64,000 nucleotides of DNA from an uncultured Clostridium sp. (GTDB lineage: Bacteria > Bacillota > Clostridia > TANB77 > CAG-508), in assembly GCA_945946655.1 (NCBI GenBank), contig CAMEWM010000004.1, positions 1,809-65,808 of the forward strand, written 5' to 3'. Both the position numbers and the translations under genes were made by a program. The notes under the pieces were generated by a model. It saw nothing but the letters and a program-made list of their open reading frames with translations, was not told the DNA's origin and ran no database searches. Below, one piece after another: positions 63,336-63,800 of this stretch (positions are counted from its first letter, which is position 1; every line of letters starts with the position of its first letter).

Positions 63336-63800
63336 ATGCCGGGAAAAAATAGTTTTTTAAATATAGTAAAGGATTTAGAAAAACAACAAGAAAACCAAGG
63401 GTATCTAATATTAGTGAGGTGTGGAGCTTTCTTTGTAGCTATTGGAGCAAATGCAGTTATATTATCAAACGAACTTGGATTAAATACAATATGTATGGTA
63501 AAAGGAATATGTAAAATAGGAATACCACTAAATTCCCTTTATGACTACATAAAAAGACTTGAACAGCTAAAATATAGTTTTGTAATATATAATTACTCAA
63601 AAGATGAAATGATAGATAATGGAAAAAAGTATGCAGAAATGTACAGAAATAAAGGTAAGTGTGTTAATAAAAGCCAAATTCTGATAACCTGCGAAAACTG
63701 TGAGAAGTACAAAAGAACTTATGACAATGTAACAATATTTGAAGAGCTAAAAAGATTACAAAAGTTAAAGGAAGAACAAAAACATGAGCAAAAGCAATGA
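63336..63800 (+). CDS. Stand-alone MutS domain-I-like protein (DGR accessory candidate)
   Basis: 154 aa with SD ggaggtggg upstream. GYLILVRCGAFFVAIGANAVILSNELGL...KIGIPLNSLYDYIKRLEQLKYSFVIYN parallels E. coli MutS [29 protein letters not shown]...[27 protein letters not shown]. Confidence 0.55.
   Translation: MPGKNSFLNIVKDLEKQQENQGYLILVRCGAFFVAIGANAVILSNELGLNTICMVKGICKIGIPLNSLYDYIKRLEQLKYSFVIYNYSKDEMIDNGKKYAEMYRNKGKCVNKSQILITCENCEKYKRTYDNVTIFEELKRLQKLKEEQKHEQKQ

Follow-up and report, generated by a model that had tools for sequence, protein, structure and literature searches.

[quoted passage not shown] The question is raised by msl, a gene of 154 codons between the target gene and avd of a DGR near one end of the window, the whole 64,000-nucleotide stretch of DNA that was analyzed here. 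Of the steps of DGR retrohoming, the one least understood is how the mutagenized cDNA comes to be installed in the target gene and evades mismatch repair. An earlier note on this DNA, made from the sequence alone, had likened the gene product to MutS domain I by eye, had mentioned that an MSL accessory ORF of uncharacterized function is found in surveys of DGRs, and had suggested that the protein binds or protects the mismatched heteroduplex of cDNA and variable repeat. The present analysis establishes the identity, conservation, DGR linkage and predicted fold of msl, and from these we infer what its product may do.

The DGR cassette and the msl gene

The window ends 216 nt into avd, and the RT gene and the template repeat (TR) were read from the matching locus in a metagenome contig, L001. 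Contigs L001 through L004 contain the same locus, encoding an MSL protein that is 100% identical, while L005 comes from a diverged strain with an MSL that is 86% identical. The order of genes is lepA, a Ham1-like gene, a SpoU methylase gene, the target gene, msl, avd, the RT gene, the TR, an SSB-like gene, dinB, metK and further chromosomal genes. With neighbors such as lepA on one side and dinB and metK on the other, the element lies in the bacterial chromosome. A tmRNA, a tRNA-Trp and housekeeping genes are also within the window. The HRDC domain was absent among the genes called in L001–L005. The features of the cassette that fall within the window are listed in Table 1.

Table 1. Features of the DGR cassette at the end of the window (positions are those of the window)
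Feature	Position	Strand	Basis
DGR target (variable protein) gene, 383 aa	61897–63048	+	ORF call, Pfam
Variable repeat (VR), 137 nt, 3' end of target gene	62903–63039	+	match to TR of L001
Terminator-like hairpin (63217–63240) with T-rich tail, overlapping an 18-nt inverted repeat (63234–63251/63260–63277)	63217–63277	+	consensus match only
Weak promoter-like site	63258–63285	+	consensus match only
Shine-Dalgarno sequence of msl, GGAGGTG	63324–63330	+	read from sequence; 5 nt before ATG
msl, stand-alone MutS-domain-I-like (MSL) DGR accessory gene, 154 aa; start ATG 63336, stop TGA 63798–63800	63336–63800	+	ORF call, Pfam, predicted fold
MutS_I homology region (residues 17–94)	63384–63617	+	Pfam PF01624, Foldseek
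G30-A31-F32-F33-V34, counterpart of the MutS G-D-F36-Y-E38 mismatch-recognition hairpin	63423–63437	+	hhalign
Four near-invariant Cys: C53 (63492–63494), C59 (63510–63512), C119 (63690–63692), C122 (63699–63701)	63492–63701	+	alignment
Predicted long C-terminal alpha-helix, residues 123–153, Lys/Glu-rich	63702–63794	+	AlphaFold2 model
Overlap of msl stop and avd start, 17 nt	63784–63800	+	ORF coordinates
avd, the accessory variability determinant of the DGR; only its initial 72 codons, cut by window end	63784–64000	+	Pfam, PHROG

For the target protein, Pfam gave E 4.6e-4 with FGE-sulfatase and E 0.06 with N_methyl, neither match reaching its curated cut-off; its homologue in locus L007 matched N_methyl at E 1.2e-3. 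These sub-threshold matches suggest a pilin-like N-terminal methylation/transmembrane motif and, weakly, a C-terminal domain resembling FGE-sulfatase or C-type lectins. The TR, also 137 nt, is found downstream of the RT gene, at 11904–12040 in L001. Seventeen of the 19 mismatches between TR and VR in L001 are at adenines of the TR, as are 19 of 23 in the window. Between the VRs of the window and L001 there are 28 differences, of which 24 fall on adenines of the TR, while their flanks are 99.6% identical. The element is a canonical DGR and is currently active.

Between L001 and the diverged strain in L005, msl has a dN/dS of 0.09 at a dS of 0.74. With this ratio it is a functional gene under strong purifying selection, neither a chance ORF nor a remnant; that it might be a leftover of mutS was considered and rejected on the same ground. 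The overlap with the next gene, which the earlier note had taken as a sign of co-expression, is genuine. The ORF that begins at ATG 63784, inside msl, encodes an Avd protein according to both Pfam (bAvd, E 2e-7) and PHROGs (phrog_3206, 'Avd protein of DGR', E 3.6e-9), and the complete protein has 120 aa (10449–10811 in L001). The msl, avd and RT genes are expressed from one operon.

MutS domain I homology and conserved residues of MSL

The likeness to MutS domain I, first seen by eye, was borne out by a profile search, by alignment and by structure prediction. MutS_I (PF01624) is the one significant Pfam-A family for the 154-aa protein, with 29.0 bits (E=1.3e-6) against a curated cut-off of 20.6, and it was matched by 58 of 60 diverse MSL relatives, the best with E 9.6e-15. 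When a profile built from 21 relatives was compared by hhalign to residues 1–125 of E. coli MutS, a single template sequence, the match had E 4e-4 and a probability of 34%. Both of the stretches that had been matched by eye were found again in this alignment: G30-A31-F32-F33-V34 of MSL is placed over G34-D35-F36-Y37-E38 of MutS, and K60-I-G-I-P64 over M68-A-G-I-P72. F32 falls on F36 and V34 on E38, in agreement with what the earlier note said of GAFFVA, that it keeps the Phe and has lost the Glu.

The structure predicted by AlphaFold2 had a pLDDT of 77.7 with a shallow alignment, and a mean pLDDT of 93.1 and a pTM of 0.78 with 60 diverse relatives aligned. When both models were compared to the PDB with Foldseek, the top 50 matches were all to the N-terminal domain I of MutS, MSH2, MSH3 or MSH6 (best E ~5e-6, ~100–113 columns, 14–22% identity). 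Among these matches were 1wbb, 1wbd and 1wb9, structures of the MutS mutants E38A/Q/T. Sequence and profile searches of PDB chains did not find MutS domain I at E<1, so the relationship of MSL to MutS is a remote one. The matches that PDB sequence searches returned – AcrR, calcineurin B and the coiled region of MutS2 – were judged to be due to chance. PHROGs had no match for MSL.

The homology can be seen only in the Pfam profile, in the alignment of profile to sequence and in the predicted fold, and these three independent kinds of evidence concur in pointing to a stand-alone homologue of MutS domain I. The connector, lever, clamp and ABC ATPase domains of MutS (MutS_II–V) are absent from the 154-aa protein in Pfam searches, and, judged by its domain content, MSL is not a MutS protein, as it lacks the multi-domain ATPase architecture.

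The Phe36 of E. coli MutS is stacked onto the mismatched base; Glu38 takes part in discrimination and in authorizing repair, and Glu38 mutants still bind DNA. How these residues vary in MSL can be seen across a large family: an exhaustive profile search returned 436 cluster representatives at E<=1e-3, and the 150 listed of these are all 54–270 aa long, with no full-length MutS among them. The Phe36 counterpart is Phe in 186 of 190 MSL sequences. The Glu38 counterpart in the same 190 is V in 90, I in 48, T in 28, N in 11 and other residues in the rest, and it is Glu in none. The Phe-X-Glu motif is half conserved in the MSL of the window, with F32 kept and the Glu replaced by Val. A half-kept motif is also found in some MSH subunits that do not recognize mismatches.

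In an alignment of 60 MSLs, with a mean identity of 22%, no columns other than G30 and F32 are invariant, and conservation is 90% or more at each of G37, A40, C53, C59, K60, P64, C119 and C122. The pair C53 and C59 is found in 247 of 255 MSLs, and the C-terminal CxxC in 185 of the 255. This conservation suggests that C53, C59, C119 and C122 are a candidate Cys4 zinc site linking the CxxC to the domain-I core. Past domain I, the predicted model consists of a short knuckle that contains C119-x-x-C122, followed by the helix of residues 123–153, which has no counterpart in MutS domain I.

Linkage of MSL to DGRs

A gene class of this description has been reported before. Wu et al. 2018 (Nucleic Acids Res 46:11; PMC5758913) defined MSL ('MutS-like') as a new class of DGR accessory gene of uncharacterized function, in line with the earlier note. 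The published MSLs are found in 16 DGRs, are 112–283 aa long with a near-neutral pI, and include one in Legionella; MSL-type DGRs always have avd and never HRDC, and their cassettes are termed 'Architecture D'. The same paper has about three quarters of DGRs with avd and a few percent with MSL, and describes three RTs with MutS_I-like C-terminal extensions. Msl is also present in three Bacteroides DGRs, according to Macadangdang et al. (10.1101/2024.11.15.621889). The gene in the window almost certainly belongs to this MSL family. The family was already named in 2017, and the present gene is a confirmation of it, not a discovery.

To what extent MSL keeps company with DGR genes was determined in species-representative genomes, which were searched with a degenerate DNA pattern made only from conserved MSL residues and checked on the window. 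This pattern found at least 119 MSL loci, nearly all of them in uncultured gut Clostridia. Loci of the family include scaffolds of Clostridium sp. CAG:567 and CAG:508 (FR902204.1, FR889109.1). A search for related loci with a narrow MSL alignment returned only 4. The neighbors of the listed loci were scored with HMMs built from the cassette proteins.

Co-occurrence with DGRs, which the earlier note had proposed as a check, was found. An avd gene is adjacent to msl and on the same strand in 80 of the 108 listed loci with room for one, and in 7 more it is 2–4 kb away. An RT gene is within 1.5 kb of msl in 70 of 92 listed loci and farther away in 8 more, and there is none in 14. Overall, among the matches listed, ~80% of MSL loci have avd nearby and ~85% have a DGR RT nearby. 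The distance from the end of msl to the start of avd ranges from −118 to +111 nt in 82 listed loci, with a cluster between −33 and +50 and many short overlaps. The position of msl before avd is kept across MSL proteins that are merely 25–45% identical. Two divergent MSLs, P0089 and P0205 (32% and 31% identical to the window protein), are both in the order MSL-Avd-RT followed by a small gene, which is SSB-like in the P0089 locus and has no Pfam match in the P0205 locus. Fusions are also found, a full-length one of MSL to Avd in L025 and one of MSL to RT in L045.

The exceptions mostly reflect decay: truncated MSLs, an IS element beside a truncated MSL (L019), and fusions created by in-frame deletion. 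In L037, avd and the RT gene have been deleted, leaving target, MSL, TR and the SSB-like gene; the MSL is truncated and the TR comes right after it. Loci with target, MSL and SSB-like genes and no Avd or RT were considered as a sign that MSL acts on the side of the target, and this reading was rejected on account of the TR in L037, which marks such loci as deletion derivatives. A tblastn search of 50,697 phage records with MSL gave no match, and a pattern scan of IMG/VR gave no confirmed MSL relative. The linkage of MSL to DGR loci is strong. With this linkage, a significant MutS_I match and the predicted fold of MutS domain I, none of the outcomes that the earlier note had named as refuting its reading was observed.

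Two other features of these cassettes were observed in the course of this comparison. One is the RT gene, which in L001 encodes an RVT_1 domain split over two reading frames. In the present lineage the split is made by one extra C right before the conserved G-N-Y-T-S-Q motif, such that the 0 frame reads ...CCA AUU CGG AAA... and the +1 frame ...Ile / Gly-Asn... The arrangement AU[U/A/C]-C-GG[A/U] is found in 14 of 82 MSL-linked RTs, with flanks that differ, and the frameshifted RTs are scattered among in-frame RTs in a neighbor-joining tree. No sense codon in the window is rarer than CGG, which occurs once among 15,132 codons. A pseudogene was considered and rejected: both halves are under purifying selection, with dN/dS of 0.08 and 0.13, and the VR is diversifying. 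The split has the look of programmed +1 ribosomal frameshifting at the hungry codon CGG, and a literature search found no report of it.

The other is the gene that follows the TR, which encodes an SSB-like OB fold of ~82 aa without an acidic tail (Pfam SSB, with a score of 28.7 bits where the cut-off is 26). Of the 70 listed MSL loci with room for it, 45 have the gene, and a pattern scan for this gene alone gave matches almost only behind DGR RTs. It is unmentioned in the main text of Wu et al. (PMC5758913) and in the other DGR literature searched. The frameshifted RT and the SSB-like gene may be more novel than msl itself. For msl, what is new here is the Phe/Glu signature, the four cysteines with their suggested zinc site, the counts of linkage to avd and RT, and the dN/dS. 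The Phe-kept, Glu-lost signature, the four conserved cysteines and the C-terminal helix are not mentioned in the available parts of PMC5758913 and 10.1101/2024.11.15.621889.

Possible roles of MSL and comparison with known systems

The likeliest role of MSL, which we put at slightly less than an even chance, is to bind mismatches or heteroduplexes without being able to license repair, and so to shield the mutagenized cDNA:VR heteroduplex from host MutS. In such a mechanism, the RT-Avd complex would copy the template repeat into an adenine-mutagenized cDNA, and this cDNA would pair with the variable repeat to form a heteroduplex dense in mismatches. The Phe in the hairpin of MSL, as the counterpart of Phe36, would bind the mismatched or distorted DNA. 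Since MSL has no Glu38 counterpart and no ATPase, clamp or connector domains, it is proposed that repair would not be licensed. By occupying the heteroduplex, or otherwise keeping host MutS off, MSL would allow the mutagenized strand to survive until replication fixes it. In this architecture – one MutS domain I, a CxxC knuckle that a probable Cys4 zinc site staples to it, and a long C-terminal helix – the helix may oligomerize MSL or tether it to Avd or RT, and either would deliver it locally, with no whole-cell mutator effect.

In favor of shielding are the domain-I identity and predicted fold of MSL, its Phe/Glu signature, the selection on msl, its linkage to DGRs and the activity of the element. 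Several results from other systems also bear on this role. Deletion of host mutS raised the retrohoming of a Bacteroides DGR 5–10 fold, in an all-or-nothing manner, according to Macadangdang et al. (10.1101/2024.11.15.621889), which makes shielding more plausible. To enhance or preserve mutagenesis, one reconstitution of a DGR in E. coli used a dominant-negative MutL and a ssDNA-annealing protein (10.64898/2026.07.21.739853), and another used a mutS deletion in a sbcB-deleted strain (PMC12875486). In E. coli reconstitution work a ssDNA exonuclease restricts the process and the cDNA seems to anneal at the lagging-strand template, a setting that suits shielding. Host MutS thus restricts natural DGRs, and engineers must disable mismatch repair for efficient DGR-based mutagenesis, so a selective pressure for an anti-repair factor exists. 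The idea itself predates the earlier note: the 2026 preprint (10.64898/2026.07.21.739853) states that earlier studies tied mismatch repair to DGRs through the MutS-like homologues of many natural DGRs.

Other considerations count against shielding. On its own, a domain I may have too little affinity for DNA to hold out against host MutS; the DNA affinity of full-length MutS owes also to its clamp domains and to dimerization. The Phe could be conserved for structure and not for function, and a role inside the RT-Avd ribonucleoprotein fits the tight coupling to Avd, and the fusions of MSL to Avd and RT, equally well. According to PMC5758913, the Bordetella phage DGR does not require MutS; in one E. 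coli assay mutS had no effect, although the reporter was an 18-nt insertion, which is not a MutS substrate (PMC12875486). A literature search found no biochemical or genetic test of any MSL.

That MSL is a subunit or cofactor of the complex of RT, Avd and TR RNA, acting during cDNA synthesis and not after it, we regard as rather unlikely. It might, for example, steady a mispaired primer terminus or the RNA:DNA hybrid at template adenines, allowing the RT to extend beyond misincorporations, or help in priming. The overlap of msl stop and avd start is typical across the family, avd is always present in the published MSL-type DGRs (PMC5758913), and RTs with MutS_I-like extensions are described there as well; the two fusions favor some physical association, and the invariant Phe could sense mispairs in a hybrid as well as in DNA. 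However, adenine-specific mutagenesis is achieved by RT and Avd without MSL, both in the Bordetella system and in DGRs reconstituted in E. coli, and MutS domain I is known to read DNA duplexes and is not known to bind RNA:DNA hybrids. The proportions in PMC5758913, with MSL in far fewer DGRs than avd, also imply that MSL is unneeded for the core chemistry. Quite unlikely, in our estimation, is a role of MSL at the target DNA that is independent of host mismatch repair, as a structure-recognition or integration factor that binds the cDNA-VR junction or a hairpin near the VR and aids diverged pairing or marks the boundary of transfer. The fold is that of a sensor of DNA distortion, the SSB-like protein suggests that ssDNA is handled after synthesis, there are hairpins between the VR and msl (63217–63277, between the target gene and msl), and in E. 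coli the cDNA seemingly anneals at the lagging-strand template, similarly to the oligonucleotides of recombineering (10.1101/2025.08.18.670894). Against this, the hairpins could just as well be a terminator, MSL has no evident element for sequence-specific binding of DNA, and the loci without Avd or RT look like deletion remnants and so do not show an independent link to the target.

It is exceedingly improbable that msl is a chance ORF or the non-functional remnant of a captured mutS 5' end, carried passively. Many cassettes in MAGs have indeed decayed, through truncation of MSL, in-frame deletion fusions or IS insertion, and 14 of the 92 listed loci are without a nearby RT. Nevertheless, the selection on msl, the 436 cluster representatives with their invariant G30 and F32 and four conserved cysteines, the strong Shine-Dalgarno sequence, and the retention of its place before avd at such low protein identity all oppose a remnant, and the selection and conservation data have already effectively refuted it.

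The shielding role can be extended to the cassette as a whole. It is conceivable, if on balance doubtful, that MSL is a natural, local anti-mismatch-repair mimic of domain I, which binds mismatches by its Phe without authorizing repair and works with the SSB-like protein as a 'recombineering helper' module to fix the mutagenized cDNA in the chromosome, with production of the RT throttled by a programmed +1 frameshift at CGG, the rarest codon of the genome. If MSL is the answer of the element to mismatch repair, it would be a small, portable and local mismatch repair inhibitor, of use in targeted-evolution tools and for insight into mismatch discrimination by MutS. Handles for concrete, cheap experiments are offered by the signature 'Phe kept, Glu never', by the four conserved cysteines and by the link with Avd.

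Several known systems can be set beside MSL. Stand-alone MutS_I proteins of gut phages resemble it in size and, with E 8e-6 to 1e-3 by Foldseek in BFVD, in fold, examples being A0A8S5PPT8 of Siphoviridae sp. ctZro7, with 153 aa, and A0A8S5PL02 of Myoviridae sp. ctsK93, annotated 'MutS domain I'. They are at best distant relatives, because there was no sequence-level match to MSL in the phage GenBank set or IMG/VR. MutS and MSH domain I (PF01624) share with MSL the fold, the G-x-F-[FY] hairpin, the G-I-P and the Phe36 counterpart. MSL lacks the connector, lever, clamp and ABC ATPase domains of MutS and MSH proteins, as well as their regions for interaction with MutL or the clamp. Its Glu38 counterpart is never Glu and is mostly V/I/T/N, its loop at MutS residues 59–62 is shorter and bears Cys, and it adds the CxxC knuckle and a helix of ~30 residues to domain I.

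The published MSLs of Wu et al. 2018 have in common with the present one a small size (154 aa compared to 112–283), homology to MutS, a place in a DGR cassette, the presence of avd and the lack of HRDC. There is no difference in kind; the present copy comes from a chromosome of uncultured, low-GC (29.6%) gut Clostridia, and its cassette is ordered target-msl-avd-RT-TR-SSB-like with a frameshifted RT. The helpers engineered to boost DGR or oligonucleotide recombineering in E. coli, dominant-negative MutL E32K or a mutS deletion together with a ssDNA-annealing protein or an ExoI deletion, are a functional analogy only, drawn from the domains present in MSL and in the SSB-like OB-fold protein; the proteins are unrelated. 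With these helpers, mismatch repair is suppressed and single-stranded cDNA is protected or handled, so that the mismatched heteroduplex is fixed as mutations. The natural pairing of MSL with an SSB-like protein would parallel this engineered pair of a repair suppressor and a ssDNA-annealing protein.

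A frameshift in the DGR reverse transcriptase

The reverse transcriptase (RT) gene of the diversity-generating retroelement (DGR) lies past the end of the window and was read on L001, a metagenome contig that has the same locus and continues beyond avd. A single extra C immediately 5' of the sequence for the conserved GNYTSQ motif splits this gene in two. The same arrangement is found in L005, a diverged strain of the window locus, and in L023, L032, L044, L079, L086, L087, L089, L114 and L121 – among the matches listed, 14 of 82 RTs linked to a MutS-domain-I-like (MSL) gene have the extra C. 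At the split, the sequence reads AU[U/A/C] CGG in the 0 frame and Ile|Gly-Asn in the +1 frame.

Several observations argue that the split is functional. In a neighbour-joining tree, frameshifted RTs are interspersed with in-frame ones, both halves of the gene are under purifying selection (dN/dS of 0.08 and 0.13), and the VR of the split-RT locus is actively diversifying. In addition, CGG is the rarest sense codon of the window (1 in 15,132). The site is a candidate for programmed +1 ribosomal frameshifting; a literature search found no report of a +1 frameshift in a DGR RT.

Features of the DGR locus and of the window
Feature	Sequence	Position	Strand	Remarks
tRNA-Trp(CCA)	window	11626–11701	-	ordinary chromosomal feature
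tmRNA, tag peptide ADNNRELAYAA	window	11837–12202	+	ordinary chromosomal feature
DGR target gene, pilin-like protein	window	61897–63048	+	N-terminal motif and C-terminal VR domain
Perfect tandem 14-nt repeat, TCCTACCGGACTAG x2	window	within 63210–63277		between target gene and msl
Terminator-like hairpin	window	63217–63240		between target gene and msl
18-nt inverted repeat	window	63234–63251 / 63260–63277		overlaps the terminator-like hairpin
Candidate RT frameshift site	L001	11341–11360		about 1.35 kb past window end, same locus as window
SSB-like gene, ~82 aa	L001	12285–12533		past window end; Pfam SSB 28.7 bits vs cut-off of 26

The SSB-like gene and rearranged MSL loci

A conserved gene 3' of the template repeat (TR) encodes an SSB-like OB-fold protein that lacks the acidic C-terminal tail. 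Among the matches listed, 70 MSL loci extend far enough downstream to include it, and 45 of these have a homolog. When its pattern was scanned for on its own, the gene turned up almost exclusively 300–650 nt 3' of a DGR RT. It may be a further DGR accessory gene, and as such a candidate it has no mention in the main text of the paper that defined the MSL family (Wu et al. 2018, PMC5758913) or in the other papers searched.

Rearranged or decayed MSL cassettes are numerous in metagenome-assembled genomes (L007, L019, L025, L037, L045, L068, L069, L099 and L110). In L007, ftsK directly follows msl-avd and the RT is absent; in L019, a truncated MSL gene is adjoined by an ORF assigned by eye as transposase-like; and in L037, deletion of avd-RT has left target, MSL, TR and SSB-like gene. 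There are also in-frame fusions, as assembled in metagenomes, of MSL with Avd (L025), with RT (L045), and with RT and the SSB-like protein (L110), which may be either functional or artefacts of assembly. In one subgroup (L014, L102 and L108), the MSL gene (~160–200 aa) has a convergent Cro/C1-type HTH gene after it and a pilin-like gene beyond that, and neither avd nor RT occurs within the available locus sequence.

The target gene and its genomic setting

The target protein has a 'GITLIALVV' methylation/TM motif at its N-terminus, and its VR domain is C-type-lectin/FGE-sulfatase-like. One or two such pilin-like target genes are present per related locus, which suggests that gut Clostridia diversify the tips of their pili or pseudopili. 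The repeat, hairpin and inverted repeat downstream of the target gene could serve as a terminator or attenuator; alternatively, they could be a target-site structure of the DGR.

Elsewhere in the window, a 2,340-aa ORF (31873–38895) encodes a surface adhesin-like protein with seven Cna_B stretches, nine DUF11 stretches, DUF7507 and a VWA domain.

The GC content of the whole window is very low (29.6%). The 42 long + strand genes end in TAA (34), TAG (7) or TGA (1) – the sole TGA is the msl stop, within the avd overlap. With few exceptions the long ORFs lie on the + strand, the DGR target among them, and from this bias the target would presumably run in the direction of replication, the preferred orientation for retrohoming in E. 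coli (10.1101/2025.08.18.670894).
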